Assembly: GCA_000002435.2 (NCBI GenBank)
Contig: CM018790.1
Strand: one strand, 5' to 3'
Source: Giardia intestinalis
Lineage: Eukaryota
DNA length: 64,000 nt
Shown: positions 41,001-57,100 of the stretch, piece after piece
Layout of the letters: every line of letters starts with the position of its first letter
Numbering within the stretch: position 1 is the stretch's first letter
Notes under the pieces: generated by a model
Seen by the model: only the letters and a program-made list of their open reading frames with translations
Told to the model about the DNA's origin: nothing
Database searches by the model: none
Position numbers and translations under genes: made by a program

Positions 41001-42665
41001 CTTAAAGTGGACCCCGATAAGCTGAATAAAAGAAAGGCACTGATTGTCACCATAGATTGCCCTGCCGGTCCTCGCGCGGGCGACCTTATCACGGAAGTCG
41101 CTGATACGGCTGGGCGTCTGCTGTATCTGCTTTATATGAATGTTAGAAAGGACGTCACCGATGAGCGCAGAAGTGAAGGATATCCGCCGTGAGTTGACAT
41201 AATTCTCGTAAATAGTTTGTGAGAAGAATGGAGATATCAAGTCGTCCAGATCTACGTCGTACAAATGATAAGGATAGGTCAAGTTTCCTGTGTAGTGAGC
41301 GGCAAACTGCTTCGTAAGTTGGCAGTGCAATCGAAAGTTGTGTATTTCCTGATTATAGGACCCGTCTGGATTGTAAATCTTCAGTGCCTTAAAGAACCGG
41401 AGGGGATCGATACTGCAGCACTTTATGAGAAAAGACCGAAGCTTACTGTATGGCTTGGCGAGCGCACGGATGCATTCACCAATAGGTACTAACTCCAAAA
41501 CAATCTCGTGAGGAAACCGGCCATTAGGATGAACTGTGGGTTGATATCGCGAATCCATGTCGGCGTAGTCACACTGGAAAAGCTCTCCTAACGTGTCTAT
41601 GCCTGAAAGCCCTGCAGACTGGTTGTTGTTCTCACCAGGCGCAATGTTTCCGCTGTTTGGCAGGGCAGATGTAAGTGGGTTGTCTGGTGCGGTAGGAGTA
41701 TTCATTGAAGGAGCTCCTGGAGTGCCCTCAGGCCAATAAACGTGATCGAGCGCTTCGATAGACATATCCTCCATAGGAGTTATAGAATCCATCTTGGACT
41801 CTAAAGCTAGCTCACGCAGGTCGGGGGTTGGCGGAGCAACAGTGACAGGAGTTGCGAGCCGAACCCCGATATCTTGAAGGCTCACTGAGAGTGACAGATG
41901 TGGGGACCCTTTCGAGGCGCCCATAGTTGTCCCTATAAGTGTGGCTTTGGCCTTAGATTGCAATATAGTAGACTGAGAGGGTCTGTCAAAAGACGTTTTC
42001 ATGCGATAAATTCTCAAACGCACGGAAGAATACAGCTTGATATAATATTCTAATATCCTCTGGTAGTGGCTTCGTGCAACTTTTTGTTCGCCTGATTCAT
42101 CCTTCTCCAGCCTGCAGCAATAGCCGGAAGAAAACTCAAGCAGCTCCTCCACAAGCTTCTCACAGAGGAAGCGCTGCATTTGGCGCGAGTAGCAGTGGAG
42201 AAACTCAATGAAAACGTAAGGACTGTTGTGCTCAAAGAAGAGCATAGAGATCTGGTGGCAGGGCATAGACCCGTGATTACGAAGGTAGATCCTGATAGAG
42301 TCGTTAAACCGCGGAAGATCCAGAGGAGGAATCGGCTTGACGAAGATACCGTCCACAGCGGGTGGCATAAATGTCTCAATGGGGAACACGTACGACTTTC
42401 TTTTGCTCTTCCCATGTATAACCTTGTAGAGACGATTAGTGCGCAGGTAGTGACGCGCAGTTTTTGAGACGAGGGGATTGTCCGATGTGACAAGGGCAGA
42501 AAGACCCTCGATGTCTCTCGCATCAGACATACACTTCAGAACGCGCTGGATCAGTGCGGGTTCAGCATCACCTGTCTGCACGAGCAGCAAATCGTCAATG
42601 TTGTAGGGCGCTGGTCGACTCATGAGCAAAATAGTTTTTTCGTTCGCTTCGGCCACTTTCACCAT
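38046..42665 (-). CDS. large hypothetical protein, 1539 aa, no recognisable domain
   Basis: Uninterrupted 4.6-kb ORF. It converges on the previous gene with a 21-bp spacer. A 45-bp A/T-rich divergent spacer separates its ATG from the ORF at 42711. Confidence 0.7.
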   Translation of the reverse strand: MVKVAEANEKTILLMSRPAPYNIDDLLLVQTGDAEPALIQRVLKCMSDARDIEGLSALVTSDNPLVSKTARHYLRTNRLYKVIHGKSKRKSYVFPIETFMPPAVDGIFVKPIPPLDLPRFNDSIRIYLRNHGSMPCHQISMLFFEHNSPYVFIEFLHCYSRQMQRFLCEKLVEELLEFSSGYCCRLEKDESGEQKVARSHYQRILEYYIKLYSSVRLRIYRMKTSFDRPSQSTILQSKAKATLIGTTMGASKGSPHLSLSVSLQDIGVRLATPVTVAPPTPDLRELALESKMDSITPMEDMSIEALDHVYWPEGTPGAPSMNTPTAPDNPLTSALPNSGNIAPGENNNQSAGLSGIDTLGELFQCDYADMDSRYQPTVHPNGRFPHEIVLELVPIGECIRALAKPYSKLRSFLIKCCSIDPLRFFKALKIYNPDGSYNQEIHNFRLHCQLTKQFAAHYTGNLTYPYHLYDVDLDDLISPFFSQTIYENYVNSRRISFTSALIGDVLSNIHIKQIQQTPSRISDFRDKVARARTGRAIYGDNQCLSFIQLIGVHFKQSLNKYGYLLQKPETFIANGYSYTTETENDRSQFVALLKTKAFKKLVEVLQVFVERAIMVECDWTRSSFDGADAITSSNVLKFVSYNDLVLRYYKHIMGLIEAYNSIASTDTKDVFLSSYIPPPETQRHRLDEAFANESIYHPCIITSIYLLQFLKEQLSLIEDSEDSYTTQLAYSLLSSLESNPMFSYYYPHAQKILIASLSSLLVNLLYIFTASEPGDFRTSIYMDMTNISDTLQRLLRHFSLTSFRSSGSEIVMLGSHVCPTLSNKAPCGGSGELSVSHAVQSLEEYIESNNFTVITEDQLLSSLSPDLGEADSAPHKLRQLLKTHNKVYLVKPRSVVYNEAYEILMTIIKDPEALYVFLILMDGVLYAREISPLLLSDNIYLTLLSAAIRFKNRFHQLDLVIERLNEISHYWFANRKMLKGLILHETPHGLMITGPSADFPAPTPLIDINAHYARLVAHLNDELLTKSNSNVIHSAASHFAHYAGGAICDSVTDVTVLCTAGDLISPFVRPNHLIKSKFSLNERTLISLPSPIKISFTYINMLSALDMEEMSMRSEKLSKTTPIIEKLLPFSQSSYMAPLVKFTPYHKGTTVLFKKEDGFDWNEKLPSDLAFESLVIRAVGGFSRKSYQVDVKSRARIEKLATAAFKTRFEPFILVLLHIIKTNIQHSLSIKLVTLAIHLSFYFKHVLAICSLGRFLLPMKLKPYNKDFTTVELKVLAHNASVIIYNTIHVHLRKYQMVIDRFLSHALGDNLYSQVDRYVLEDLTSIEVHHPKHDAREGNAYTEHHLESFDDTSLSAPASVVHSRRSSMLGVGGIDSGLKTFFERKRLVITSSKVSSRVSSPLLCSSEVSSTHSNSIKTIKDPSLLAYTPLELPKLLKPTTETLNIYFYKSRIFMKDIIDMCERKYFDQYETMEAIMCILKYFVHKHVEAFSGVDKERPSSGVLRRLRLYEYFKRLEITDLICEQIYTAYCFGIPALCVS

Positions 42666-42710: not shown

Positions 42711-42899
42711 ATGTCTACTCCGGAGAACCCGGAACAGCTTGCCGAGTCGATCCAGACGCTGCTACTAAACATAAAGCACCAGCAGGAGCAGGCTACAGTT
42801 CGCGTGAGCTCCGCTTTGGACGACATTTTGAGTCGTATTGACGCTCTCGATCAAAATATATCCCATCTTCTTGAAACAGTGAGCGCAGATGGAAAGTAA
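42711..42899 (+). CDS. possible small coiled-coil protein, 62 aa
   Basis: Start context gcaaaatttaATG. Its stop TAA (42897-42899) is embedded in AGTAAAT (42895-42901). The sequence is amphipathic-helix-like (LAESIQTLLLNIKHQQEQATV...LDDILSRIDALDQNISHLLE). It overlaps the next ORF by 11 bp in the +1 frame. Confidence 0.3.
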   Translation: MSTPENPEQLAESIQTLLLNIKHQQEQATVRVSSALDDILSRIDALDQNISHLLETVSADGK

Positions 42900-43665
42900 A
42901 TGCCGGCAGGCACTTCTTGACGGCGTATACAACGTGGGGTACGCAACACCTGCCAGTATAGCCACGGCGACGGGGTCCACAGAGGCTGCTGCGTATGCGG
43001 TTCTCTCTGCAGCCACTTCTCCCAAGGAATATTCCCTGCTGATAATTTCGTCGGAGTGCGGGGAGCATGGGATGGTGCTTCGACTTTCGCTTTATCCTTC
43101 AATGAAGGACTCGGGGATCTCAGAGGAAGCCGCCCCCCGTGCTCTTGCGGCAGTGTCTCACTCGTTCATAAGACTTTACGATGAGGAACCGTCAAATGTA
43201 TGGAGCGCAATTGTGACGAAAGAGTGCGGAGAAATGATGACAGATCCTACCTATGGGATGCTGTATGCGAGAATCACAACAGACGAAATAAGAAGCGCCA
43301 TGGAGGCCCGCAATGAACGGCTCCAGCTGACAGATAACGATCTTGTTCGCTACTCTCGTGAGCTTTTCTATGCAGTGGTCAACTCGGATGCACGTCGCGA
43401 AGCACACGCTGAAGAAGCACAGCCTCACTTTTGTTCGTCTACAGAGCCCCTTACATCGATAGATGAACCGCTAATCAAGAAGACGGCCTTGCAGGGAATC
43501 TCACCTACTGTAGTTTCAAGCTTGGCTATTACTGAAGATGGGTCATTGGAAACTGTGCACAAAGAGGTGGTTGTATCTCACTGTGCTAAGCCAAAGGTGA
43601 AGGCAAAGCAAAAGCCCGCTGCGTGCGACATAATGTCATTTGTGAAGAGGCGAGATCCCAACTGA
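42889..43665 (+). CDS. hypothetical protein, 258 aa
   Basis: ORF beginning ATGGAAAGTAAATGC. No recognisable domain. Several short antisense ORFs overlap it and are judged spurious. Confidence 0.5.
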   Translation: MESKCRQALLDGVYNVGYATPASIATATGSTEAAAYAVLSAATSPKEYSLLIISSECGEHGMVLRLSLYPSMKDSGISEEAAPRALAAVSHSFIRLYDEEPSNVWSAIVTKECGEMMTDPTYGMLYARITTDEIRSAMEARNERLQLTDNDLVRYSRELFYAVVNSDARREAHAEEAQPHFCSSTEPLTSIDEPLIKKTALQGISPTVVSSLAITEDGSLETVHKEVVVSHCAKPKVKAKQKPAACDIMSFVKRRDPN

Positions 43666-43708
43666 TGACCTTATTAAGACTGTAAATAGGCAATCTAGTG
43701 ATTTATCG

Positions 43709-44311
43709 ATGAGCCTTGCACGTCAGATCACAGAGATAAAGCGCGAGGGCCAGTTTCTTATGCAGCTCTCGAGCCACTATGAACACATCGTTGCCCATAT
43801 GACATACGAATGCATCTTCTTCATGGCTTTACTGTTTGACGCATATATCGTCATTACGGAATCAAAGCTAATAACGACCGCCGTGCGTTACTATTTCCCG
43901 ATCCACATTCTCATATTCAACGCTCTGATTTCATTTTCCTCAGGGGTCTACCTTAGCTTTTCGTCCATGCTGATTATTCGAGCCAAAGGTCCCGAGGAGA
44001 TGATTCTCTCACTCAGGAACTACATTATCACCACTGTCCTGCTTCAGCACACAAAGTATCCACTCGTGCTCCTTGCAGGAAGCATGCTGTGGGGGTTTGT
44101 TACATGGAAATATCTACACGTAGCACTCGGACTCAGCCTTATAATTGCCATTGTGATCACCCTGTGCTCTTACGCCTTGGGAGTTCTCTGTGCGCTCTTG
44201 TTTGTTATTCCAGGTGACCAATGGGAAGAGTATACAAAAAGCATCGTAACTTTCTTGAAGCAGGTGTGGAAGAAGATCAGAAGACGGTGTAGAAGGTGCA
44301 CAAGGCGCTGA
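43709..44311 (+). CDS. small polytopic membrane protein, 200 aa, with 4-5 predicted TM helices and a basic RRRCRRCTRR C-terminus
   Basis: Hydrophobic stretches FFMALLFDAYIVI, FPIHILIFNALISFSSGVYLSFSSMLII, YPLVLLAGSMLWGFVTW and LGLSLIIAIVITLCSYALGVLCALLFVIPG. Confidence 0.5.
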   Translation: MSLARQITEIKREGQFLMQLSSHYEHIVAHMTYECIFFMALLFDAYIVITESKLITTAVRYYFPIHILIFNALISFSSGVYLSFSSMLIIRAKGPEEMILSLRNYIITTVLLQHTKYPLVLLAGSMLWGFVTWKYLHVALGLSLIIAIVITLCSYALGVLCALLFVIPGDQWEEYTKSIVTFLKQVWKKIRRRCRRCTRR

Positions 44312-44351
44312 GCTGTTGTGGAATAATCGCGGAACAGAACGTAAACTAAAA

Positions 44352-46325
44352 ATGGATAGAGACGCAATAGAGTGGTTTAAGGCAGTAAAGTACAGCAACA
44401 TAAACTATATAACGAAGCACCTAAATGAAATGTACGATGTGCGGGATGAAAATGGCAACACAGGCCTTATGCACGCAGCCTTCTATGGTAATGTGGCCGT
44501 GGTTCAGCTCTTGGTAGAGAAGAGTGCTAGGCTGCTTAATCTCGCCAGAAAGACGGCCCTGATGCAATGCGTGTGCTCCGATTACAGCTTAGGCAGAGCT
44601 TCAATCCCTGACATCGTGAACATCCTTCGGAGACTGGAAGCCGGCATTTCCGATGAACGTGGGTGCACGGCATTAATGATGGCTGCAGAACGTGGCGACG
44701 TGAGATCTGTCGCCGCTCTGGTCGAGTATGAGCATGGCCAGAAGGACTCCCGAGGTCGCACGGCGTTGATGTACGCAGCATCTTTTGGAAAGGCAGAGTG
44801 CATCCCAGCTCTTTTGGTTGAAACAGCAGAAATAGATAATAAAGGCATGACAGCTTTGATGTTTGCTGCCTATGGAAATAGTGTCCCGATAATCCGGCAA
44901 CTGATTCGGTACGAAGCGCGAAGAAAAAACAAGAATAACGAGACTGCCCTTATAATCGCCATTCGCCAAGGACGTGAAGAAGCGGTCTCAGAGCTTGCTG
45001 CGCATGAAAAGGACATTTACTACGGCTCGATATCTCCGTACCAATTTGCCGTTAATTCCCAACAACTTGCGTCTGCAGATATTCTTAGGCCCCACAACGT
45101 GCCCGTTCCAACCTTTATGTCAACTACTAGGCCTCTCCAGGGATCGACAGTGACCGAGAAAACAAGTGTGGGGGAAGGTGCTTTAGAATTGACGACTCGT
45201 CCCAACCTACAGCAATCAGATCAAACCGAAGCCTTAGAGAACCTCCAGCTCCATATTAATACGCTGCGGCAAAAGGTTGATGCAATAATAATAGAAATGA
45301 CTCGGTCCACACCCCCTTCTGCAAACACTGACAGTTCTCAGAAAGGTATCTTCCTTCAGCGACAGTTATCGGAACAAGATAGAGACATCGGGCAACTTAA
45401 GGCGGCTTTAGAGCGCTCTCAAATGGAGATACAGGCTTTAACAGACTCCCATGCAACTCTCATGAAACGGATAGCAGAGGCAGAAAAGAGCGCAGCAGGT
45501 GCACAGATCCAACTCGCACTCGGCGCGGCTGGAGAGCAAACAAACAGCAATCTCATAGGTCATCTAGGGGTACTTAGCGAATCTATAAGTAGCATGGACA
45601 CTAAAAATAGAGAAGAGCACAGAGACTTTGCAGCAAAATTGGGTTCACTCCACGCAAGCCTGACTCAGGCTGTGCAAGTATCATCGAGTCAGGCCGAAGA
45701 AATAGCGTCTCTGCGAGACCGTCTCACCTGTCTTCAGGAGGAAGTGCTTAAGCTATCCATTAATACGCACGATGCTGCAACGAAGATCTCAGGCTATTCG
45801 AAGGCTCTGGAAATGAAGATTCTCAATTTGGAGGCACGACTGGGTCAGAGCAATGTGTCCTCTTTTTCCACAGCCCACTTACATACAGAGTCATCTATAA
45901 GCAGGGCCATCAACCATTTGCATGAAGAGCTTCAGGTAATCAAAAGATCCATAGAGAATGTCTCACAGACCCTTATTACATCCCATGGGATCACCATACA
46001 AAACTTAGATACCTTGTCGTCAACGCATTCTATGTTTGTTGCTAACTATCCAATCCACAAAAGCATGCAGAATGAGGCAAAGCTATTTGAAGAGTTGCAG
46101 AACAAGATTGTGCGAATTGAGCATTATATGGAGGACATGATGCGTGAGGACAGACTATCGGCCATTATGACGGGCTTTATAGAGCTCAACAGCCGGGTCG
46201 ATCAACTTGTCATAGACCAGGCCAAGAGCCACTCTGCAAATTTGCCCGGAAGGGTAGACGAGGTAGAGCGTACGCTGGATGCCATCTTAACCGTGTTGAA
46301 TCTTGCTCCTGAAGAGGCGTCCTAG
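44352..46325 (+). CDS. ankyrin-repeat protein with a C-terminal coiled coil (Protein 21.1-like), about 657 aa
   Basis: ANK repeats such as GNTGLMHAAFYGNVAVVQLLV, GCTALMMAAERGDVRSVAALV and GRTALMYAASFGKAECIPALL. The C-terminal half is a heptad-rich coiled coil. ATG 44352 was chosen for its aaactaaaaATG context. The alternative ATG at 44316 lies 4 bp after the upstream stop. Confidence 0.8.
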   Translation: MDRDAIEWFKAVKYSNINYITKHLNEMYDVRDENGNTGLMHAAFYGNVAVVQLLVEKSARLLNLARKTALMQCVCSDYSLGRASIPDIVNILRRLEAGISDERGCTALMMAAERGDVRSVAALVEYEHGQKDSRGRTALMYAASFGKAECIPALLVETAEIDNKGMTALMFAAYGNSVPIIRQLIRYEARRKNKNNETALIIAIRQGREEAVSELAAHEKDIYYGSISPYQFAVNSQQLASADILRPHNVPVPTFMSTTRPLQGSTVTEKTSVGEGALELTTRPNLQQSDQTEALENLQLHINTLRQKVDAIIIEMTRSTPPSANTDSSQKGIFLQRQLSEQDRDIGQLKAALERSQMEIQALTDSHATLMKRIAEAEKSAAGAQIQLALGAAGEQTNSNLIGHLGVLSESISSMDTKNREEHRDFAAKLGSLHASLTQAVQVSSSQAEEIASLRDRLTCLQEEVLKLSINTHDAATKISGYSKALEMKILNLEARLGQSNVSSFSTAHLHTESSISRAINHLHEELQVIKRSIENVSQTLITSHGITIQNLDTLSSTHSMFVANYPIHKSMQNEAKLFEELQNKIVRIEHYMEDMMREDRLSAIMTGFIELNSRVDQLVIDQAKSHSANLPGRVDEVERTLDAILTVLNLAPEEAS

Positions 46326-46362
46326 CGTCTTGGGGACTCGGCGGAAAAACAAAAAAAGACAG

Positions 46363-47721
46363 ATGGGCACAACAGAGCTGATGATGGCCCTCAAAGCGGA
46401 GGATTTCGACCGCGCCCGCCGTCTTCTAAGCACGGCTATGGGGCAACAAGATGACGAGGGCTTTACGGCGCTTATGTACGCGCTACGCGCCCATGCTCCG
46501 GAGCTAGCCGAACAGCTTGTCGAGGCTGAAAAGGGGAAGATTACGCGACGGGGTATCACAGCATTGATGCTAGCCGCTGAGCATGGCTACAAGGATGTTG
46601 CTGCGCGACTTATCGAAGCTGAGGCAGGCAACATGGACCTGCAAGGCTGGACAGCCCTGATGTACGCATCCAAAAATGGACACAAGGAGGTCGCTTCCAT
46701 GCTGATCGATAAAGAGGCCGGCATGTGCAATATAGATGGCTCTGCAGCCATTCACTGGGCTGCTGAGCAAGGCCACCTCTGTATTGTCGAAGAGCTGGTA
46801 AACGCAGAGGTTAACCTAACCAACAAGGACGGCTGGACAGCGCTAATGAGTGCCGCCCACAATGGGAGCGAAGAAATCGTTAGGTATCTTGTCAAAGCGC
46901 TTGCAGGAAAACAGACGAAAACAGGGTGGACAGCGCTCATGGCTGCTGCTGCACGTGGTCACTATCGCATTGCAGAGATCCTGCTCAGTAAGGAGGCCGG
47001 CAAACGTACCCATGATAGCTGGTCTGCGCTCATGTCGGCCGCGCAAAACGGATTCGTGAACATTGTGAAGCTTCTTTGCCCATTCGAGGAGAAGATTATT
47101 ACAGATAAGGGTGTGACAGCGCTAATGCTTGCAGCCCAAAGAGGTCGCACAGAGGTGGCACCCATTCTCATACCAAAGCAGAGCTGCTTGCAGGATGCTC
47201 AGGGCTTGACTGCGCTGATGTATGCAGCTGACCAAGGCCACTACGAGATAGCAGAACTGCTGGCTAAATATGAATTCGGGATGCGCGATAACGAGGGTCG
47301 TAGTGCATACATATACGCGTCGACTGGCGATCACGTGCGCATCATGGAGCTCCTTCAGGAGGAGGAGATTTACTCTATGCGATCAGCAATAGAGAAGACT
47401 GTCTCCATGCGTTTGCAGCACAACTCCCCAGACAGTCCTGATATGCGCTCGGCCATAAATAGGCTCGAGCTTAAGATAGATTCATTGATGAGGGATAACG
47501 CAGGCATCCGTTCCATGCTTCATACAGGTGGAAGCTCTCCCCAGTCTAAGCTACCTGACCTAGGCAGCGGTGCAAACGAGCTTATCATTGGAAGCGCCCA
47601 ACACGCCTATTTCCTGCTTCCCTGTCGCCATGTAGTATACTCTGATAAGGAGGACTTCACATTTGATGTTTGTACCAGGTGTGGTGGCCTAGTATCTGAA
47701 TTCTATAAGATTGAGCTGTAG
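46363..47721 (+). CDS. ankyrin-repeat protein (Protein 21.1-like), about 452 aa, with a C-terminal Cys-pair motif
   Basis: More than 10 ANK repeats (GFTALMYAL..., GWTALMYASKNGHKEVASMLI, and so on). C-terminal CRHVVYSDKEDFTFDVCTRCGG. Start chosen at MGTTELM for its context aaaaacaaaaaaagacagATG. The ORF-track start at 46303 overlaps the previous gene. Stop TAG is embedded in AGTAAAT at 47720-47726. Confidence 0.8.
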   Translation: MGTTELMMALKAEDFDRARRLLSTAMGQQDDEGFTALMYALRAHAPELAEQLVEAEKGKITRRGITALMLAAEHGYKDVAARLIEAEAGNMDLQGWTALMYASKNGHKEVASMLIDKEAGMCNIDGSAAIHWAAEQGHLCIVEELVNAEVNLTNKDGWTALMSAAHNGSEEIVRYLVKALAGKQTKTGWTALMAAAARGHYRIAEILLSKEAGKRTHDSWSALMSAAQNGFVNIVKLLCPFEEKIITDKGVTALMLAAQRGRTEVAPILIPKQSCLQDAQGLTALMYAADQGHYEIAELLAKYEFGMRDNEGRSAYIYASTGDHVRIMELLQEEEIYSMRSAIEKTVSMRLQHNSPDSPDMRSAINRLELKIDSLMRDNAGIRSMLHTGGSSPQSKLPDLGSGANELIIGSAQHAYFLLPCRHVVYSDKEDFTFDVCTRCGGLVSEFYKIEL

Positions 47722-47825
47722 TAAATGGGAATTTTAGAACAGTGCATTATTCAGCGGAGGCAGTTTCTACTTGCAGGCTGTGATTGTGTGTGATTGTGTC
47801 CTGACGGTTTGAGATTAATTAAGAA

Positions 47826-49439
47826 ATGTTGCCAGAACAGTATAGTAGCAGTGACGCAATCTCTAATGCTATAGACCAACACCTCTCTTCATTCAAGTAT
47901 CTGTCTCTCTATACTCTCAAGGGAACGGACAAGTTCATGGCCGAGGAGATTGATGCCGAGATACAGGGTGAAGGTGAGCGTGCCACGCTGGATATGCTGT
48001 ACGCAGAGTACGCCTCTGCACAGCTTCTGGCACACTCCAACATTATCAGGTATCATGGTCTCTTTGTACACGCATATTACGTCTATAATGTCACTCAGTT
48101 CTGTGCCACCCCGCTGAGTGCCGTGAAATTTTACAATAAAGATTGCGGCTTGTCCGTCAGCGATGTACTTAAGTTCACAGCCCAGACGGCACTTGCCCTA
48201 GCCTACCTCCACAGTCCATATAAGGTCGGTCCGCAACACATAAGCACGTTTTGTCTTCCACGGGTGCATGGATGGATGTCCTTAGACTCCGTAGTTATTG
48301 ACGCCGCCTCCTCCAGATATGTGGTCATGGACCTGGTACCTACTTTGAGGAGACTTCGGGTAAAGTCGAAGAGAACCCCCATGTCGAGACGGTATTTTTC
48401 GCCCGAAAAGCTCTTGCGTGGGGACGACTCTCCTGGATTCCCTCAGGATGATGCCTGGAGTCTTGGCATCATTCTGTATGAGTGTATCACAAATCAGAAA
48501 TTTAACTGCCCCGATAAAGAACACTATGCTACAGAAGAGCAGTGGACTGAATTCATGGGGAAACATATTGACTTAATTCAAGACGTTTGGCTCCGAAATC
48601 TTGTTATGCAGCTTCTTGCCTTCAATCCAGCTGAGCGTTTGACAGTGGAGGAGCTTCTGATGGACCCACGGATTGCTCAGGCAGCAGCAGACAACGAGGC
48701 GAGGCTTGTGTCTCACATGGAGCTTTCTTTCCTAGGAGACAAGAGAATGCAGTGCCTATACCCAGAGATCGTTCAAGCAAACAAGGATCTGCACTCTAAC
48801 CTGGATCAGTTACTCTCGGAAATAAGTGGTGAAGAAAGGAGAAGCTTTGAGTTGAAGGAGCAATGCGAAGATCTAACGACTCAGCAAGAAAGCCTCCTCT
48901 CTGAGATAGCTATGCAACAAGCAGCCGTCAGCTCTATGAAAGATCTTGCAAATGATATCAATCCAAACTATGACCAGCTTAAGGCCGAACTTGAGGAACT
49001 CGCTAGGTATCTAGACATCGATATTAATCAGGAAAACACACTTTCCATGCTAAATGGTGCAGATCAGGCAATCCAAGACATGATGAATGCGATACAACAA
49101 CTACAAGAGCTAGTCTCGATATATAATGACCACAAGGAGCGCATTAGAGATCCAAATCAATTGAATAGAGAAGCTGATGCAATGTTAGTAGATCTAAAGA
49201 GCACTATCTATTCTACTGCGCAGTTCATTGCTCGCTTAAGTAAGGATGCTTGCGTTGATCTTCTGGACAGTGACATTCCCACGTGCTCTGTATGCCTAGG
49301 AAGTTTATCTAATATAGTATTTTATCGGTGCAACCATATTGCGTGCTGTAATGTCTGTTTGGAGCACATATTAAATAGTACGCGCACGTGTCCCATCTGC
49401 AGGACAGAGATAACTCAGTACAAGGAGGTAACTTGGTAA
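47826..49439 (+). CDS. degenerate protein-kinase-like domain (pseudokinase) + coiled coil + C-terminal C3HC4 RING finger, 537 aa; putative E3 ligase
   Basis: Kinase subdomain remnants: HSNIIRYHG, ALALAYLHS, YFSPEKL (the APE region), DAWSLGIILYECIT and NPAERLTVEELLMDP. There is no GxGxxG, VAIK, HRD or DFG. RING: CSVCLGSLSNIVFYRCNHIACCNVCLEHILNSTRTCPICRTEI, with C-x2-C...C-x-H-x2-C-x2-C...C-x2-C spacing. Confidence 0.8.
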   Translation: MLPEQYSSSDAISNAIDQHLSSFKYLSLYTLKGTDKFMAEEIDAEIQGEGERATLDMLYAEYASAQLLAHSNIIRYHGLFVHAYYVYNVTQFCATPLSAVKFYNKDCGLSVSDVLKFTAQTALALAYLHSPYKVGPQHISTFCLPRVHGWMSLDSVVIDAASSRYVVMDLVPTLRRLRVKSKRTPMSRRYFSPEKLLRGDDSPGFPQDDAWSLGIILYECITNQKFNCPDKEHYATEEQWTEFMGKHIDLIQDVWLRNLVMQLLAFNPAERLTVEELLMDPRIAQAAADNEARLVSHMELSFLGDKRMQCLYPEIVQANKDLHSNLDQLLSEISGEERRSFELKEQCEDLTTQQESLLSEIAMQQAAVSSMKDLANDINPNYDQLKAELEELARYLDIDINQENTLSMLNGADQAIQDMMNAIQQLQELVSIYNDHKERIRDPNQLNREADAMLVDLKSTIYSTAQFIARLSKDACVDLLDSDIPTCSVCLGSLSNIVFYRCNHIACCNVCLEHILNSTRTCPICRTEITQYKEVTW

Positions 49440-49524
49440 GTTGCCAGTTGTAAATAATTATATCTTTCACGTGATGGGCAGCGCGCTGATCTAAAGCTTG
49501 ATCTAAAGGGGTCAAAAAATAAAA

Positions 49525-50910
49525 ATGTCTCAGCAGTTCATTCTCGTGGTGGGGGACATCAACATCCCGACAAAAGCCTTCCAAATCCCCATTCAGTTCC
49601 GGGAAATCTTCCACCCCAGGCGCATATCCCATGTGATTCTGACCGGGAACGTTACATCAGCAGGCACTGTCTCGTTTCTCAAGACTATCAAGTCTGATCT
49701 ACACGCAGTTCGAGGACCTTACGATGAGACAAGCTACCCCGACGTGGACACGCGCAACTACTGCGGCTACAACATCTCTGTAATGAATGGAAGCCAATGC
49801 ATGCCGATGGGGGACTCAGCACAGCTTTCTAAGTTTGCAAAGGTATACGACAGCGAGATCATTTGTTCCGGATGTGGCTGGCGCCCGTTCGTTGGAATGG
49901 TTGATAACGTTCTGGTGGTTAAGCCCGGGAGCCTGACTGGCAGTATTAAGGAACATGAGCCCGGTTACGCCGATGACTCATCTTACTGCTTTAGCCAGAG
50001 CTCACAACCAGGAGAGGATGCAAGCTCTCTTACGGACTCTGATGGAATGAAGACATATGTGCCTAACCCATCGAAGGTTTATCCATATGTTCGCTATACC
50101 AGCGAACCGTCGTTTGTCCTACTGGGAGTATCGAAGGGTTCACCACTTGTTAATGTCTTCACATACATCATCCGTGATACCCAGCTGGTTGTCTCATCAT
50201 CGAAGTTTATGGTTCCTAAACTTCATGAACTACCAGAGCCTCAAGTAGAGATGTTTATGCATCACAGATCCTCACAAGAGCAACAGTCACAAGAACCTGT
50301 CGCTTTTGGAGGCCTAGGTAATCCGCCGCAAACAGCACTGCCTCCGTCATCACAGCAGTTTAACCCCTATTCACCTTCTACAATTAATGCACAGATAGGA
50401 GCGCCGTCTCAGGCGTGGCAGGTACCACCGTCCTTCCAAGGTGGAGAGGGTCTGCCGGGCCAGCAGTTTTCTAGTCAGTCATCATGGGCCTCTCAGCAGG
50501 TATCTGCCCCTGCCCCTACCCTAGTGCAGCCTACCCCCATTGCTGCCCCAGTGCAGCCTACCCCCATTGCTGCCCCAGTGCAGCCTACCCCCATTGCTGC
50601 CCCAGTGCAGCCTACCCCCATTGCTGCCCCAGTGCAGCCTGTTGAAGACTCTGCTTCTTCTGTTACTACGTCAGCTGTGTCAGCAGCTCCACCGGCGCCC
50701 ACTAAAGCGAATCCTTATTTGCAAGCTAAGGCGTCTCCTGGCACAAATCCTTACCTTGCTAGCTCTGCTACTAAGCCTGCTAACCCCTATCTTAAGGCAA
50801 CGAATCCTGGCACCTCTCCGACCAGTCCCCCAACAACAAATCCATACCTCAAAATGGCGGGAGGAACGAGTGAAACGTCCCCATATCTTAAGAAGTTTGA
50901 AGATTCTTAG
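49525..50910 (+). CDS. Vps29-like (retromer, calcineurin-like phosphoesterase fold) N-terminal domain with a long Pro/Gln/Ser-rich C-terminal extension containing tandem repeats, 461 aa
   Basis: MSQQFILVVGDINIPTKAFQIPIQFREIFHPRRISHVILTGNV...FLKTIKSDLHAVRGPYDE aligns with human VPS29 [40 protein letters not shown]...YLKTLAGDVHIVRGDFDE. The downstream region NGSQCMPMGD...SEIICSGCG aligns with IHGHQVIPWGD...DILISGHTH but has lost the metal-ligand His residues. The C-terminal half contains (VQPTPIAAP)x4 and NPYL repeats. Confidence 0.65.
   Translation: MSQQFILVVGDINIPTKAFQIPIQFREIFHPRRISHVILTGNVTSAGTVSFLKTIKSDLHAVRGPYDETSYPDVDTRNYCGYNISVMNGSQCMPMGDSAQLSKFAKVYDSEIICSGCGWRPFVGMVDNVLVVKPGSLTGSIKEHEPGYADDSSYCFSQSSQPGEDASSLTDSDGMKTYVPNPSKVYPYVRYTSEPSFVLLGVSKGSPLVNVFTYIIRDTQLVVSSSKFMVPKLHELPEPQVEMFMHHRSSQEQQSQEPVAFGGLGNPPQTALPPSSQQFNPYSPSTINAQIGAPSQAWQVPPSFQGGEGLPGQQFSSQSSWASQQVSAPAPTLVQPTPIAAPVQPTPIAAPVQPTPIAAPVQPTPIAAPVQPVEDSASSVTTSAVSAAPPAPTKANPYLQAKASPGTNPYLASSATKPANPYLKATNPGTSPTSPPTTNPYLKMAGGTSETSPYLKKFEDS
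50524..50640 (+). repeat. perfect 27-bp tandem repeat (gtgcagcctacccccattgctgcccca), 4 copies plus a 9-bp partial, in-frame within the Vps29-like CDS
   Basis: Read directly from the sequence: units at 50524-50550, 50551-50577, 50578-50604 and 50605-50631, with a partial unit at 50632-50640. Encodes VQPTPIAAP x4. Confidence 0.9.
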
Positions 50911-50960: not shown

Positions 50961-53148
50961 TTACTGCACACTAGACCTGTCATTTAGGGCTTTCAGCAAC
51001 GGATCTTGCAAAGATGTTGCAGATAGAAGCAGTGTTTCCCGGTCGTGAGAAAGCTTTGTAAGACAGAGGCGCTTTATAAAGCTGTCACAGAAATCGTTTC
51101 CTAGTGCAGAAAATTCAGAAACTAGCTGCTCCACGCTTTCTACCTGGTGAGAGGCTGCGACAGTCCTCAACGTCGCAATTAAAATATCCACACTGTTCTT
51201 TTGGCTTCTGGACAGAGTGGCGCTAATTGTGCTATATGTTTTCGAGGCTTCTAGCTTGCTGCTGGTAATAAAGGAAGGTGGAGGAGGCGTCTTGTAACCT
51301 GGCGGATCGCTTGAGTTGAAGCTCAATTTTCGAAGTTCGCTACGTGAGGAGGGTCCGGGACTGGTTAAGCTGTACTTATCTGTGCGATGCCTGGCAGAGA
51401 GGCTTACACTATCTGAAAAAGCGGGAGCGGGAGGAATGGCGGGGATCTGTGGGACCTGAGGAACCTTAAGTGCATCGGTGATTTGCGCACCAGGTATGTG
51501 AATTTGGGTTTTCTGACTGGGATCCTGTGAGAGGACTGAGTGTAGTTTAACGGCGGTAGTCGGTCTATTAACGGTATCCTTCAATGGGGTAGCATTAGAT
51601 AGATCTTTGTGAACTAGCTCTGACGGATGTATAGTCGGCGATGGCTCATTTGACTCATCAGTAGAAACTCGGGCACATCCACCCCCTTGCAAAGAGTCAG
51701 TGAAGCCATCAGCAACGCTTTGCAGGGGTAGGATAACATCTTGGCCGTTTATATCTTCTCCTGTAGCGCTTAGCTGGCCGACATTCTGCTCTAGGTGAGG
51801 TGGTGGTGGTGATGTTAATTTGGAATGTTGGGGAGAGTTCTCGGATGTGTCACTAGAAAAGCTCCAATCTTCTTGTTTCTTGGTCGGCTGAATCTTCTCG
51901 TGGTCTAATTGATTTAAATAGGGATCTTCTGGAGAGAATGTGACATTTATCTCGGAGCCCGCATTGGCTCTTGCCCGGGAAGCAGCAGCTTGTTTAACTG
52001 GAACAAATTCTTCCTCGGCAGAACCCTGTTCTTCGGGAAGCCAAATATAGCCCAGATCATCTTGTTTTGTTTGTATGGCAAAGGGGTCGTGTAAGCGATC
52101 CTGCTCTCGTCTATTGAAGTCACGAAAGTATTTCTCCATAATGGGGGCTAGAACATCGCGTGCAGAGACCTTCTGGATGGTTTTGAACCACTTGTGGGTC
52201 AAGAGCTTACTTGCAGGCCATCGATTAGTCTTGTCTCTGTCCAAACAGCAGGCAGCAAAGTCTCTGCACGTCTTGGAGATCTCAACCTTGTCATCAAACA
52301 GTGATGTGCTGGACGAATTTCTCGCTATTTCAATCATGGCCTTCGTGGGAGAGAGTTTGTGGTGAGGTGGGTGGCCAAAAATAAGCTCATAGAGGCAGAT
52401 TCCAACTGCCCAGATATCAGAAAAAGAATCGCACTCATTTTTGGTAATAGCCTCTGGGGAAAGCCAATAAGGTGTGCCAACAAACGAGCATCTTTTGGAC
52501 ATGGTCGAAGAAATTGTCGTCGAGACACCAAAATCGCAGAGCTTGATTCCCAATGATAAGGCAGCTGCAGAGTCAGAATTTGGCCGAGGAGAAAAAGAGC
52601 GAGCAATAGTCGAGATGTAACTTCCATGAGAGCTCCTCGGCCTGGAGGTTTCAGAAAAGAGACCTGGAGAAACAGGTTTGCCCAGTATTAAGTCAATTAG
52701 CCGCTTTGCCAAGCCATCAGGCTGCTGTGCCACGGTTGAAGACGTGCTGTCATCGGTCACAAGGATATTGGCACACTTTAAATCTCTGTGTATGACCTTG
52801 GATTCATGAAGATACGCAACCCCCTTAACCAAGTGGTACATAATGAAGCACGCAGTAGCTTCGTTGAGGGGTCCGACTATGCTCAGTATATCTGCCACAG
52901 AGCAGAGGCCAGCCTCCATGGCTATGTTCAAGGTGCTCTCTGTGCACCACGACCTATAGTAACGGATAGTGTAGTTAGACATCAACCTAGTCATGAGGGT
53001 AACCTCTTTCTGGACCACATCCAGCTCTGAAAGTGACTGCTCTAAATCTACTGTCTTGATAGCCACGTAGGTCATTGTCTTTTCATCTAGCGCCAAGTAC
53101 ACTGAACCGAAGCCACCGGAACCCAGTATCTTTAGTAGCTTGTATCCC
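50961..53148 (-). CDS. active Ser/Thr protein kinase (STE20/GCK-like), about 729 aa, with a ~70-aa insertion between the catalytic loop and DFG
   Basis: LGSGGFGSVYLA, YVAIKTV, VIHRDLKCANILV, KLCDFGVS and GTPYWLSPE are all present. Start chosen at MGYKLLKILGSG (ATG 53146-53148, context gcaaaatttgttaacaacccATG). The ORF-track upstream extension to 53384 is hydrophobic and non-kinase, and is probably not translated. Confidence 0.8.
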
Positions 53149-53207
53149 ATCGGGTTGTTAACAAATTTTGCCAGCAGAGTGAAATTGGATAACGAAAAAA
53201 CTCGCAA

Positions 53208-53711
53208 TTGATGACAAGCGAACCTACCCAGGAAGTAACCAAATGTGGTCCAAATGAAAAGGACTACTTCCGCATCAGAGCAAAGGTATACCGTTTTGCA
53301 GATGACGAATGGAAGGAGCGTGGTCAAGGTGAGGTCTTGATCGCGGAGGATCCCAAAGAGAAGAAATACAGGCTTCTTCTCCATCGAGATCAGACCCTAA
53401 AGTGCGCAGTGAACCTCCCCTTGATTGAGGGCGTGGCAGTGAAGCCGCTCGGAAACTCTGACAAAGCTGTTACTGTTGCCGGTCTCGACTTTTCAGACAA
53501 CGAGAAGAAACAAACCGTTTTTGCAGTCAAGTTTACCGAGGCATGGATGTGCAAGAACTTTCAAACTGCTGTAGAGCATGCCCTGGCGGGGAAAGAGTTG
53601 ACCGAGGCCGATCTGATCAAAAAGCCTGACTCCGAAGAACCCAAGAATGATAAACCTGCTGAGGCGAAAGCTTCTGAAAAAGATGTTGAAGAAGTGGGTG
53701 ACAAAAAGTGA
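53208..53711 (+). CDS. RanBP1-like Ran-binding-domain protein, 167 aa
   Basis: RanBD signature: RIRAKVYRFADDEWKERGQGEVLIAEDPKEKKYRLLLHRDQTLKCAVNLPL...LKPLGNSDKAVTVAGLDFSD...TVFAVKFTEAWMCKNF. Compare RanBP1 RAKLFRF...EWKERGTGDVKLLKH...RLLMRRDKTLKICANH...L.PNAGSDRAWVW..DF.DE...E.LAIRF. Stop TGA is embedded in AGTGAAC at 53707-53713. Confidence 0.85.
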   Translation: MMTSEPTQEVTKCGPNEKDYFRIRAKVYRFADDEWKERGQGEVLIAEDPKEKKYRLLLHRDQTLKCAVNLPLIEGVAVKPLGNSDKAVTVAGLDFSDNEKKQTVFAVKFTEAWMCKNFQTAVEHALAGKELTEADLIKKPDSEEPKNDKPAEAKASEKDVEEVGDKK

Positions 53712-54147: not shown

Positions 54148-57100
54148 TCATCCCAAGGACGCCAAGCGCAGTGCCTGCACCAGTCGAAAGACCATTATAA
54201 CTAGGACAGGATCGTAGCAGCAACCTTTCAGGGACGCGCTGATTGCAAACGGATCGGTAGCGTCGAGATTCCGAAGCTTTGAGAGAATGACATGAAGTGC
54301 AGTGGAGTGGCTCTCACAGCCAAAGCAGCTTGCTGGGCAGAATTGTTCTCCCTTCCGACCTTCAGTGTCGGGGGAAAACGGAACGGCACACGCACGAGTG
54401 GTGAAGTTTCCTGCTCCGAGCATGCCTTCTGTTATGCAAAACGTTCGCAGTGAAAGACCGTTGTTCTGGAGAGCAGAGTAAAAGTCGCACGTGACTGTAT
54501 CGTACGGCTTCGTCTGAGTCACCCGAGGTTCCAGGAAGTAGTTCTGCTCTTCAGCCTGATCATCTTCTTCTACCACCTTCTTAGAGCGTTTTCCTTTCTT
54601 TCCTTTTTTGTGCTTCGCGTTGTACTTTTCGATGTCTTCCACTGCTTTAGTATATTCGGGCGGGTGAGGCTTTGGCGCCGGCTCCTTGATCAGGCCGTAG
54701 ATGGTCTTCGAAAACTCGTGGAGGGTCATGCCCTTGGAAATGAGATTTGTCAGGGCTTGGTCCCGGACGTCGCTTGTCTGTGAGAGTAACTCGGCACGCT
54801 CGTCGCTGGTCATGTAGGCTGTAGAAACAGGCCTTACGGCAAACACCGACGAAACGTCGATCATGCCGCCTTGGCCGTCGTCCACGAGCACGGGGGGCGC
54901 GGGCTTTCCACGAGCGCTGGCAGCAGATTTTGGAGTGGTGAGAGATAGAACGCTTCCTGCTGAAGAAGTCTGCCTGTCGTTCAAAGAATTAGTAGAGGAC
55001 GACGGGGGTAAAGTCATGTCCACGGCAGAAACACTGCATCCCACTACAAAGCATGCAGAATGGTCATATGAAACAGCCTGAATCGGAAAAATGCTCTTCA
55101 AGTATTCGCTCATATATACCTTCAAGTCCGCTACTGCGTTTGCACGGATGTCTACAGTAAGCTTGGTAAACCCGTAGGTGCCTGGGCCGAGAGGTTCCGG
55201 CATTCCCTTTTCAATCTTCTGTTCAACCTTCTTCGGGGGAGGAACAGTTGATCCAGGCTTTTTAGCTTCTTGTTCTAGTCTTTTCTTCTCAGCACGTTCT
55301 CTCTTCCTCTCAGCCTTCTCGTGCTCACGAAGCTCTAGTTCTGAAAGCCAGCCCCTGCTCCTCTTCAGTGACTCGACAAACTTCTCCTCTGTGATCTGGA
55401 ACTGGTTTTGCGGTGGAGGAAGAATTGGCTCATTGGGGAGGCGTCTGTTCCAGGGGCTCGCTCCTATAACCTGAACCAGAGGCATAGTTGAGGCAGAAAG
55501 GTTAACGCATGATAAGACAGCGAGTTGCCGCGCCATCTCTACATCGATATTTCGGTTCTTTGGGCGTAGATTTGCCTGTAGAATATCATGGTCCGATGTG
55601 TGCGAAAGGAAGATTCCAGATCGCGTCAAGGCCGAGAATAGCTCTGTTGTGGAGGGGAAGATCACGTTTCTAAACGCACGCGGGCATCGTATGTGCGCAT
55701 GTGCTTCAAACGTCGACTTGGCCACGGCCAGCTCTGCTGCCTGCCGGGCACGTGCAGCTGCTCCCTTGGTGCGGCTGATATTGCCTAATGATTGCGACAT
55801 TGTCTGAGTAGTTGTAAGGTGGGATATGTTCAGTACGGAGCATAGCTGTTGCTGGGGCAAGTAGTCATTGGCTCGTAAGTTATCGACAAAGTTTGTAAAC
55901 CCTGGGATCTCGGTAAATCCTACTATCTCGTAGCCCTCCGGTAGAATACGTAGATAAAGCAGGATACCGGATGGTAGTGCCAACTTCATCAGCACCGAGT
56001 GCACTACAACACCCGATTGCTTATAAAGGCGGATAGAACGTTCTGTCAATTTTGGCACTGGAATCTTATTGCCAGTTGCTCCCTGGTGGTAGTACGTAAC
56101 CCTTCCTCTGCTGGCAACGTTACTGATGGATGTTAACTGAGCATTCTTGGAGTTCTGTCCATTTTGAGAGGTGATCGAGGCCATAGGACCACGTGCATTC
56201 GATTTTCTGGTATCCATTAAGTCATCACAGTATGAATTACTCAGTCCTGTTTTTGTCAGACTGGCACCGCTTTCAAGCATGCCCGTGGTCGGGTCGTAAA
56301 TATAATTTCCAAGCAAGTCAGCGCATTCATCTATGTTAAGATTGTCCCCTCGGTCTAAGCACGGAGTGAGGCTCCAAGCACGATAGGGAAGTGATGAATA
56401 TTTCAGGGCAACGATTGAAAGGGGGCCTGTTTTCAGCAACTTCACAACAACAGTCCTCTTCTCGGGCTTATAGACGACAGACTGTATGCCATCGACATCC
56501 CATGAATTAATAGCGATATTCCATATGCCAACAAAATACACCCCAAGTAAAGAAGTCTGATCATGTGACAGCATAGCTTTCTGAAGGCTATAGACTGCCT
56601 CTTCTGCAGTAAGAATGCGCGCAACATACAGCTCCGGAGGGAGAACAAACTCAAGTGTTATGGGCTCTATTTGCTCCTTTTGTGGTTCGGGACCACCTGG
56701 TAAAGCCCCTGGAAGTGCATTTGCTGGTGCAGGATCCGACTGTGCTTGGTCGCCTTCTTCCGGTTTGGGGTCCTGGGGCTGTCTATCCCCTTGCTGATCA
56801 TCTCCTGGAGCACTTGGATCTGGATGTTCATCGTCTACATTAAGCGTCTCTTCTAGCTCACCATTTTCATCCAACAGTTCCTTAGTGAGCGTTGACTGAG
56901 TATAGTTAAAGATGTTTGGTATCCAGCTCCATAGAGTCACAGAATCAAATGCCAGGAGAGCAGCTCGCTCTTTAGCAATCTCAGAGCAGCGGAGGATGGT
57001 GCATCCAGGATAAATAGGAATAATTTGCGTGGTTATTGGGTATGGAAGATGCTCGACGTACGTCAGAGTAAAGATCAGATCGCGAGTGTTTGTCTGCCGC

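Follow-up and report, generated by a model that had tools for sequence, protein, structure and literature searches.

Can a protein kinase fold that no longer phosphorylates be used by a ubiquitin ligase for choosing its targets? The question is raised by one gene in the window analysed here, a stretch of 64,000 nucleotides from Giardia intestinalis WB:

47826..49439, + strand: complete ORF of GL50803_7356 (GK268, XP_001708742.1), with an ATG start and 537 aa plus a stop codon

The translation is identical to XP_001708742.1, which is named 'Kinase, NEK' (P0003), and the orthologues in two further Giardia lineages are intact, colinear and gap-free. A sequence-only reading of this ORF had proposed a dead kinase, a coiled coil and a RING in one chain, in an organism with a hugely expanded and mostly inactive Nek family. 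The organism is indeed of that kind, and the architecture is borne out by Pfam, AlphaFold2 (AF2), Foldseek and alignments: it is close to certain that GL50803_7356 is a three-part protein consisting of a dead Nek-like kinase domain, a helical stalk and a C-terminal RING.

This architecture is neither new nor overlooked. It was published in 2011, and the value of the locus therefore lies in experiments and not in discovery. Manning et al. 2011 listed the gene as GK268, a dead Nek 'missing K72, D166', filed as 'Nek-Unclassified', without ankyrin repeats, with a C-terminal zf-C3HC4 and with a 'trace of SMC domain' in the middle (PMC3218828, Additional file 1). Their main text describes coiled coils and C-terminal RINGs in some Neks and 21.1 proteins, and a further dead Nek that ends in a RING and has the same architecture, GK190 (GL50803_14934), is in their catalogue (PMC3218828). 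A ubiquitin inventory of 2020 counted GL50803_7356 as a RING E3 (PMC7029713), and a re-annotation of 2025 termed dead Nek plus RING proteins Int-ncPsK (PMC12538575). Our literature search found no functional, partner or localisation data on this protein. Added here are the finding that the DFG Asp is kept, an assignment of the RING subtype and its E2-activating residues, a conservation map, the evolutionary rate and a third orthologue.

Kinase fold and catalytic residues

The N-terminus of GL50803_7356 has a eukaryotic protein kinase fold:

47826..48695, + strand: Nek-like pseudokinase domain, aa 1-290 (Pfam Pkinase, AlphaFold2, Foldseek, paralogue similarity)

Profile HMMs and structure prediction, two of the checks proposed by the sequence-only reading, agree on this. 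Pfam Pkinase scores 55.8 bits (gathering cut-off 31.7) and PK_Tyr_Ser-Thr 37.8 bits (cut-off 23.1), the profile search also placing the C-terminal RING above its cut-off (see below), and residues 1-290 are modelled by AlphaFold2 at a pLDDT of ~80-94. The best PDB match for the kinase model in Foldseek is human NEK1 (4apc; E 1.9e-12, TM-score 0.66 target-normalised), with Aurora A, Myt1 and SLK next; the probability is 1.00 for NEK1, Aurora A and Myt1, and the lead of NEK1 over the other two is marginal. All the subdomain motifs quoted earlier are present, namely HSNIIRYHG (aa 70-78), ALALAYLHS (122-130), YFSPEKL (190-196), DAWSLGIILYECIT (aa 209-222) and NPAERLTVEELLMDP (aa 267-281). The best non-orthologous matches are ankyrin-bearing Nek-type kinases at 24-30% identity (one of them, P0035, named 'Kinase, NEK'), and an LAYLHSPxKV insert before the catalytic loop is common to GL50803_7356 and the Giardia Nek paralogues. 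By these sequence similarities we assign the kinase domain to the Giardia Nek expansion, and the protein as a whole is a Giardia-restricted member of the expanded Nek/21.1 gene families. The 2025 re-annotation doubts that all Giardia Nek-like proteins are true Neks (PMC12538575).

Catalytic positions were mapped by alignment to 27 Nek paralogues and are given in PKA numbering where indicated:

47883..47912, + strand: degenerate Gly-rich loop, aa 20-29, LSSFKYLSLY (paralogue alignment)
47943..47945, + strand: E40 at the position of the VAIK lysine (K72) (paralogue and orthologue alignment)
48267..48290, + strand: dead catalytic loop H148-G-W-M-S-L-D-S155, the equivalent of HRDLKPxN (paralogue alignment)
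48330..48338, + strand: degenerate DFG, D169-L170-V171, with the Asp retained (paralogue and orthologue alignment)

The three glycine columns of the loop (G in 23/27, 25/27 and 21/27 paralogues) hold S21, F23 and L26, while the K72 column, a lysine in 25/27 paralogues, is Glu in 3/3 orthologues. The HRD equivalent is H148-G149-W150, with Gly at residue 150 in the other two orthologues, and the catalytic-loop K168 and N171 are replaced by S152 and S155. The Gly-loop, the VAIK lysine and the HRD Asp are thus lost, as had been claimed; the DFG Asp, which had also been listed as missing, is kept. Its column (D184, here D169) is Asp in 24/27 paralogues, and 'MDLVP' is invariant in three orthologues. 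A phmmer pairing to CDPK2 that put the DFG equivalent at 'VIDAAS' was rejected, since the Nek paralogue alignment places it at 'MDLV'. The pattern of losses agrees with Manning's 'missing K72, D166', and as K72, D166, N171 and the Gly-loop are all gone and D184 alone of the required set is kept, we regard the domain as a pseudokinase.

There is very little chance that GK268 is instead an atypical active kinase, compensating in the manner of WNK or CASK and coupling phosphorylation with ubiquitylation in one chain. Such a reading can draw on the retained residues, which comprise the alphaC Glu E61, the HRD His H148, the APE Glu E194 and the subdomain XI Arg R271 in addition to D169, and on the existence elsewhere of an apparently active protein of this build: in P0158 (566 aa), as in GK268, a linker joins a kinase to a C-terminal PF13920 RING, but the catalytic motif set is intact. 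In GK268 five elements are lost together, namely the Gly-loop with all three of its glycines, K72 (replaced by an acidic Glu), the catalytic Asp, and both the Lys and the Asn of the catalytic loop, and the catalytic-base position is W or G depending on the lineage, which indicates that there is no constraint on it.

Helical stalk and RING finger

The kinase domain is followed by a region for which a coiled coil of ~150 aa had been predicted:

48714..49247, + strand: helical heptad-repeat (coiled-coil-like) region, aa 297-474 (AF2 helices, heptad score)

The helical, heptad-repeat character stands, but the length had been underestimated and is ~175 aa (residues 297-474). AF2 places helices at 297-311, 313-376, 385-395, 402-441 and 443-474, the second of them at a pLDDT of 82-86, and models the stalk beyond residue 376 with low confidence. 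The heptad hydrophobic periodicity is 0.458 compared with 0.260 +/- 0.038 in shuffled sequences, none of 300 shuffles being as high, and weak Pfam matches in this region are to Laminin_I, Syntaxin and spectrin.

The C-terminus carries a RING and a short tail:

49284..49403, + strand: C3HC4 RING of the IAP/MUL1/IDOL type, aa 487-526, ending in CPICR (Pfam, alignment, AF2, Foldseek)
49404..49436, + strand: C-terminal RING tail, aa 527-537, TEITQYKEVTW (AF2 strand, terminal Trp)

Kinase paralogues and RING-only proteins were aligned separately, as a joint alignment put kinase C-lobes on the RING. The RING had been called canonical, a description that holds on careful alignment. Pfam zf-C3HC4_3 (PF13920) scores 44.3 bits (cut-off 27), the eight zinc ligands (C487, C490, C502, H504, C508, C511, C522 and C525) are invariant in 43 relatives, and their spacing, C-x2-C-x11-C-x-H-x3-C-x2-C-x10-C-x2-C, fits the cross-brace rule C-x2-C-x(9-39)-C-x(1-3)-H-x(2-3)-C-x2-C-x(4-48)-C-x2-C. 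In a RING-focused AF2 run the domain is modelled at a pLDDT of 97-98; its ~40-50 in the full-length run is explained by an alignment that had no RING-only relatives.

In RING ligases, the hydrophobic residue after the first Cys contacts the E2, and an Arg after the last Cys acts as the 'linchpin' (RNF4, BIRC7). Both are found here: V489 (C-S-V-C) and R526 (C-P-I-C-R) are invariant in three orthologues and align with the equivalent residues of cIAP2, MUL1 and RNF4, the alignment of the CPICR Arg covering the active E3 RINGs MUL1, cIAP2, cIAP1, RNF4, XIAP and BIRC7. Across the 43 aligned RING sequences P523 is invariant and R526 nearly so. Foldseek matches the RING to IDOL, cIAP1/2, XIAP and MUL1 and also to MDM2-MDMX heterodimer RINGs; the nearest folds are dimeric RING E3s, several of them solved with UbcH5 (3eb6, 6hpr, 2yho, 4auq), and RNF8 is matched once the helix before the RING is included (TM-score 0.53-0.55, query-normalised). 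The tail forms a predicted beta-strand at aa 532-534 (model residues 101-103, pLDDT >90) and ends in W537, invariant in three orthologues. The closest RING relatives have a terminal aromatic residue 11-12 positions past the last Cys, usually at +11; since W537 is at +12, a role in priming ubiquitin is a guess. Judged by its residues, the RING carries the features of an active RING E3.

IAP, IDOL (MYLIP), MUL1 and LRSAM1 share with GK268 the PF13920 subtype, a helix ahead of the RING, CPxCR at the end of it and a short tail at the C-terminus. IAP/IDOL/MUL1-type RINGs are its nearest sequence and fold matches, and what they have in common reaches no further than the RING or the helix plus RING; the target-binding modules of the group are BIR, FERM, transmembrane or LRR+SAM, as opposed to a dead kinase domain in GK268. 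Human LRSAM1 was the best match for GL50803_7356 in the 2020 inventory, at 25% identity (PMC7029713). Pfam finds no LRR or SAM in GL50803_7356, even at E up to 1; the similarity is attributable to the coiled coil and RING, and the protein lacks what would identify it as an LRSAM1.

The fold matches also bear on whether this RING works by itself. It could be an interaction or heterodimerisation domain, as in MDMX or BARD1, with e.g. an ankyrin-RING 21.1 protein as its partner, or a part of a pure scaffold. MDM2-MDMX RINGs are among the Foldseek neighbours, Giardia has ~70 RING proteins of which 30 are ankyrin-RING (PMC7029713), and Manning found the RINGs nearest to that of GK268 in 21.1 proteins (PMC3218828). 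Against this, the eight ligands, the hydrophobic residue of C-x-V-C and the post-Cys Arg show no variation across three diverged lineages. E2-activating residues are typically lost from inactive partner RINGs (e.g., MDMX), and we consider a non-autonomous RING distinctly unlikely.

Conservation and evolutionary rate

Conservation is distributed unevenly along the protein, and the most conserved segment lies in the C-lobe of the dead kinase:

48387..48491, + strand: P+1 loop, SPE (APE) and alphaEF-alphaF, aa 188-222, the most conserved segment (column conservation)

Among the three orthologues, 77% of the columns in aa 188-222 are invariant, compared with 38% in the whole protein and 12-31% in the stalk, its least conserved part. 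The segment includes DDSPG(F/T)PQDD, a lineage-specific insert relative to the paralogues. Its conservation may partly reflect folding, as the P+1/alphaF region is structurally central in every kinase fold.

These figures matter for an account in which the dead kinase domain mainly localises the ligase, as a cytoskeletal tether, or autoinhibits the RING, substrates being reached by proximity or through the stalk. Other Giardia Neks are reported to be linked to microtubule structures (10.1101/719005), the 2025 re-annotation regards added ANK and RING/U-box domains as interaction modules in a generic sense (PMC12538575), and the helical stalk is long enough for binding sites of its own. A stalk that is poorly conserved beside a highly conserved P+1/alphaF segment nevertheless speaks for a specific ligand bound by the kinase domain, and we rate the localising or autoinhibitory role as rather unlikely.

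Between assemblages A and B, GL50803_7356 has a pN of 0.245 and a pS of 0.706, with identities of 65% in the kinase domain, 49% in the stalk and 49% in the RING. Synonymous divergence between the assemblages is saturated (pS ~0.70 overall, >0.75 in the RING), which makes a between-assemblage dN/dS ratio unusable, and selection was judged from raw pN and pS, a neighbouring-gene control and a within-assemblage pair. Gene order around the locus is conserved in three Giardia lineages, and within this syntenic block GL50803_7356 is the fastest-evolving gene, with 58% A-B identity versus 73-98% in its neighbours and a pN about four times that of a neighbouring gene (0.058). The adjacent gene has an Ank_2 match of 232 bits. 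The Cys/His tail of the upstream ankyrin gene was considered as a remnant half-RING and rejected (no Pfam RING match; BLASTP E = 3.0).

Such a rate could be taken to mean that GL50803_7356 is a decaying or functionless by-product of rapid Nek/21.1 turnover. This is highly improbable: despite saturated synonymous divergence the ORF is intact, colinear and gap-free in three lineages, pN is far below pS, pN/pS is 0.24 in the within-assemblage A pair, the zinc ligands are all invariant and the gene is transcribed (FPKM 17.8; PMC7029713, supplement). The gene is under purifying selection despite its rapid evolution, and its fast non-synonymous rate is consistent with adaptive change of a receptor but also with nothing more than weaker constraint.

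Proposed mechanism and related systems

The reading that we prefer, at a probability of roughly 0.55 for the full mechanism, is that GK268 is a self-contained, probably dimeric RING E3 that uses its kinase fold as a receptor. The RING would recruit and activate a ubiquitin-charged E2 through the hydrophobic residue of C-x-V-C and the Arg that follows the last Cys, the latter in the linchpin position seen in RNF4, BIRC7 and the cIAPs. The stalk and C-terminal tail would dimerise the RING, as in the structural neighbours IDOL, cIAP, XIAP, MDM2, Bre1 and RNF8; the AF2 predictions described here are of monomers. The dead kinase domain, unable to phosphorylate, would be a target-binding or localising module and would most likely contact its targets by way of the former substrate-binding surface (P+1/alphaF), where the protein is best conserved. 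Kinase-fold-directed ubiquitylation, which the sequence-only reading had also suggested, is put forward as a hypothesis, for which the intact RING with E2-activating features and the conserved substrate-binding surface are supportive but indirect.

A more specific version is possible, though we offer it tentatively: the former substrate-binding groove of the kinase domain, with the P+1 loop, alphaF and the DDSPGFPQDD insert, would be a degron receptor, GK268 would be a homodimeric, cis-fused analogue of Tribbles-COP1, and its fast evolution would reflect co-evolution with targets that themselves change rapidly. Candidates for these would be other expanding Nek/21.1 members or host-exposed proteins.

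In Tribbles-COP1 and SPA-COP1, a kinase fold without need of catalysis brings targets to a RING E3, and the SPA-COP1 partners are coupled through coiled coils. GK268 would be a single-chain counterpart of these pseudokinase-plus-RING partnerships, each of which consists of two separate proteins; the logic is shared by proposal only, as no sequence relationship of GK268 to Tribbles, SPA or COP1 was found beyond the kinase and RING superfamilies, nor any COP1-type WD40 domain. Arabidopsis KEG (Keep on Going) does combine a kinase domain and a RING in one polypeptide, as GK268 does, together with ankyrin and HERC2-like repeats (PMC3697954). Its RING is N-terminal and it carries the extra repeat domains, and GK268 does not have this KEG-type arrangement of N-terminal RING, kinase, ankyrin and HERC2-like repeats. 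KEG and P0158 are not detectable orthologues of GK268 and therefore look like independent fusions. No kinase-bearing relatives occurred among the best 120 matches of the RING-profile search, a biased sample that is no measure of how rare the architecture is across eukaryotes.

The closest comparison within Giardia is with Protein 21.1 and the ankyrin-RING (XB3-like) E3s, which like GK268 have a C-terminal zf-C3HC4_3 RING, often after a coiled coil; Protein 21.1 and the Neks form one evolutionarily dynamic super-group. Unlike Protein 21.1 with its TALM-type ankyrin arrays, GK268 has no Pfam Ank match and carries a kinase fold at its N-terminus instead.

Of the roughly 200 Nek-like kinases of Giardia, about 70% have lost catalysis, and for hardly any is a role known. 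A pseudokinase joined to a RING offers a concrete, testable idea of what a non-catalytic kinase fold may do, namely choose targets for ubiquitylation, and GK268, if it works in this way, would be a compact, parasite-specific model of pseudokinase-E3 coupling. The degron-receptor version, if true, would give the first defined biochemical role to one of Giardia's >100 pseudokinases.

Locus and neighbouring genes

The gene under study, GK268 (GL50803_7356), encodes a protein identical in translation to XP_001708742.1 (UniProt A8B916), which is annotated as 'Kinase, NEK' in Giardia intestinalis WB. The window is accordingly reference sequence of Giardia assemblage A, in keeping with its GC content of about 48%, densely packed genes, no apparent introns, and TALM-type ankyrin genes in the neighbourhood.

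Features of the window (coordinates, strand, description)
47826-49439 (+): GK268, uninterrupted ORF of 537 aa (ORF listing)
36261-38024 (+): MINDY-3/4 deubiquitinase-domain protein, 587 aa, PF13898 95.8 bits, LisH-like N-terminus
42711-42896 (+): 62-aa gene, weak HSBP1-family match
44316-46325 (+): second ankyrin-repeat protein, Ank_2 121.7 bits, long non-ankyrin C-terminal half
46303-47721 (+): TALM-type ankyrin '21.1-like' protein, listed as a TTG-start ORF of 472 aa, Ank_2 232 bits
49525-50910 (+): Metallophos_2 (calcineurin-like phosphoesterase) protein, long Pro/Gln/Ser-rich tail
50961-53384 (-): 807-aa protein, kinase domain that looks active (Pkinase 188.5 bits), then a long low-complexity tail
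17430-31115, 54148-61419, 2761-8043, 38046-42665 (all -): very large ORFs of 4561, 2423, 1760 and 1539 aa

The 46303-47721 gene probably encodes 452 aa from the ATG at 46363, since its orthologues have this length and align from there, and the TTG start of the 44316-46325 gene is doubtful, as orthologues align from about 44352. The former protein is conserved at 88-89%, and its C-terminal 'PCRHVV...CTRCGG' tail has no detectable RING kinship. A 27-bp tandem repeat (50519-50640, 4.5 copies, 98% identity) encodes PVQPTPIAA in the tail of the Metallophos_2 protein, while the Pfam match of the 807-aa protein falls in two stretches, which suggests a large insert between catalytic loop and DFG. No Pfam match was obtained for the 1539-aa ORF at E-values up to 0.1. 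Two antisense ORFs, 48282-48566 (-) (94 aa) and 49309-49632 (-) (107 aa), which run across GK268 and the intergenic region, are most likely chance ORFs. The MINDY-3/4 gene lies ~10 kb upstream of GK268, probably by coincidence; GL50803_7349 is the MINDY-4 family member of Giardia (FPKM 15.6, PMC7029713).

Dead kinase domain, helical stalk and intact RING

The kinase fold recognised by the sequence-only reading in the N-terminal part was recovered by Pfam (Pkinase 55.8 bits, cut-off 31.7) and by a full-length AlphaFold2 model, built from aligned orthologues and short Nek paralogues, in which residues 1-290 form a confident kinase domain (pLDDT about 80-94). Foldseek placed human NEK1 first (E 1.9e-12, target-normalised TM-score 0.66), followed by Aurora A, Myt1 and SLK/LOK. 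Catalytic positions were assigned by alignment with 27 Nek paralogues.

Catalytic elements of GK268
Gly-loop glycines: S21, F23, L26; lost
VAIK Lys (K72 in PKA numbering): E40; lost
HRD: H148-G149-W150, with Gly at 150 in the two other orthologues; Asp lost
Catalytic-loop Lys and Asn: S152, S155; lost
DFG Asp: D169, within an invariant MDLVP; retained
AlphaC Glu, APE Glu, subdomain XI Arg: E61, E194, R271; retained

This mapping agrees exactly with the curated literature call of 'missing K72, D166', and the active site is dead. Three of the four losses read from the sequence (Gly-loop, VAIK Lys and HRD Asp) were correct, and the fourth, that of DFG, was half right, as its Asp is kept in an otherwise degenerate motif. 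An atypical yet active kinase is poorly supported, because five catalytic elements have been lost together. Tryptophan or glycine, depending on lineage, at the position of the catalytic base is what an ancient loss of catalysis would predict.

A coiled coil had also been proposed, and residues 297-474 are indeed predicted to be helical, with a heptad periodicity far exceeding that of shuffled sequences (0/300 attained the observed score). Long helices follow the kinase domain in the model (313-376, pLDDT 82-86), with confidence dropping downstream.

The RING is intact and canonical, as read from the sequence: zf-C3HC4_3 scores 44.3 bits (cut-off 27), which places it in the RING-HC / zf-C3HC4_3 class, and the full ligand set (C487, C490, C502, H504, C508, C511, C522, C525) is invariant, together with P523, in an alignment of 43 relatives, with R526 nearly so. 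It pairs ligand for ligand with MUL1, cIAP2, cIAP1, RNF4, XIAP, BIRC7 and Bre1, including the Arg right after the last Cys (CPICR). In RNF4 and BIRC7, the E2~ubiquitin conjugate is held in place with the help of this Arg and of an aromatic residue in the tail; residues V489, R526 and W537 are unchanged across the three GK268 orthologues. Modelled from an alignment rich in RING sequences, the C-terminal 106 residues reached a pLDDT of 88.9 overall and 97-98 in the RING and tail, with a long helix leading into the RING and a short strand at the C-terminal end. The closest solved folds were IDOL, cIAP2, cIAP1, XIAP, MUL1 (rmsd 1.1 A), MEX-3C, Bre1, MDM2/MDMX and BIRC7, joined by RNF8 once the preceding helix was included. 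The majority are dimeric RING E3s whose dimer is built by a preceding helix and/or the C-terminal tail. A rival reading takes the RING of GK268 as a non-catalytic partner.

Conservation among Giardia lineages

When 1.84 billion representative proteins were scanned, just three matches fell below 1e-30, all of them GK268 orthologues or their fragments, and no other protein among the matches listed resembled it over its full length. The assemblage B orthologue is 58% identical and gap-free, that of the third lineage 50% identical, and gene order around GK268 is kept in all three lineages. The third-lineage locus (Logan run ERR3333381, 1-7756) has a GC content of 41% (WB, 48%; assemblage B, 47%), and its proteins next to the GK268 orthologue are 66-97% identical to WB. 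The 62-aa gene is the most conserved of the block (97-98% identity across the three lineages).

Between assemblages A and B, pN is 0.245 and pS 0.71, i.e., synonymous sites are saturated, and pN/pS within assemblage A is 0.24, which indicates purifying selection. A decaying gene is poorly supported, since all three lineages keep an intact ORF and pN is far below pS. GK268 is nevertheless the fastest-evolving gene of the syntenic block (A-B identity 58% vs. 73-98% in six neighbours, 42711-50910; pN 0.058 at equal pS in the adjacent ankyrin gene), reflecting either adaptive change or relaxed constraint. A-B identity is 65% in the kinase domain and 49% in both stalk and RING. Conservation peaks at residues 188-222 (77% invariant columns vs. 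38% overall), spanning the P+1 loop, SPE, alphaEF-alphaF and a lineage-specific insert, DDSPG(F/T)PQDD.

Known systems and proposed function

Manning et al. 2011 (PMC3218828, Additional file 1) entered GL50803_7356 as GK268, together with GK190 (GL50803_14934), another dead Nek that carries a RING, and noted in the main text that coiled coils and C-terminal RINGs occur in both Nek and 21.1 families. The architecture was therefore already described and is no discovery, and calling it uncommon was an overstatement for Giardia. A 2020 ubiquitin-pathway inventory (PMC7029713) counts the gene among 71 C3HC4 RING E3s, with human LRSAM1 as best match and an expression of FPKM 17.8; no functional data were found in the literature searched.

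Judged by paralogy and a shared LAYLHSPxKV insert, GK268 belongs to the Giardia Nek expansion. [quoted passage not shown] None of the 120 closest RING relatives carries a kinase domain. Kinase-RING fusions do arise elsewhere: in P0158, a 566-aa protein used for comparison, a kinase is joined through a long linker to a zf-C3HC4_3 RING of the same type at the C-terminus. P0158 is Ala/Arg-rich and its kinase domain is CAMK-like and intact (Pkinase 185 bits; HRD, DFG and APE present); the protein looks like an independent fusion with a live kinase.

The best-supported reading is that GK268 is a self-contained RING E3. The RING would bind and activate the E2~ubiquitin conjugate and would probably be dimerised by the helical stalk and tail, while target binding or localisation would fall to the dead kinase domain with its old substrate-binding face; alternatively, this domain could be a localisation or regulatory module only. 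As a self-contained E3, GK268 would operate in the manner of Tribbles-COP1 or SPA-COP1, with both functions in a single chain. The kinase-fold-directed ubiquitylation first proposed from the sequence is plausible as a hypothesis, and GK268 offers a reasonable experimental way in to the function of Giardia pseudokinases.
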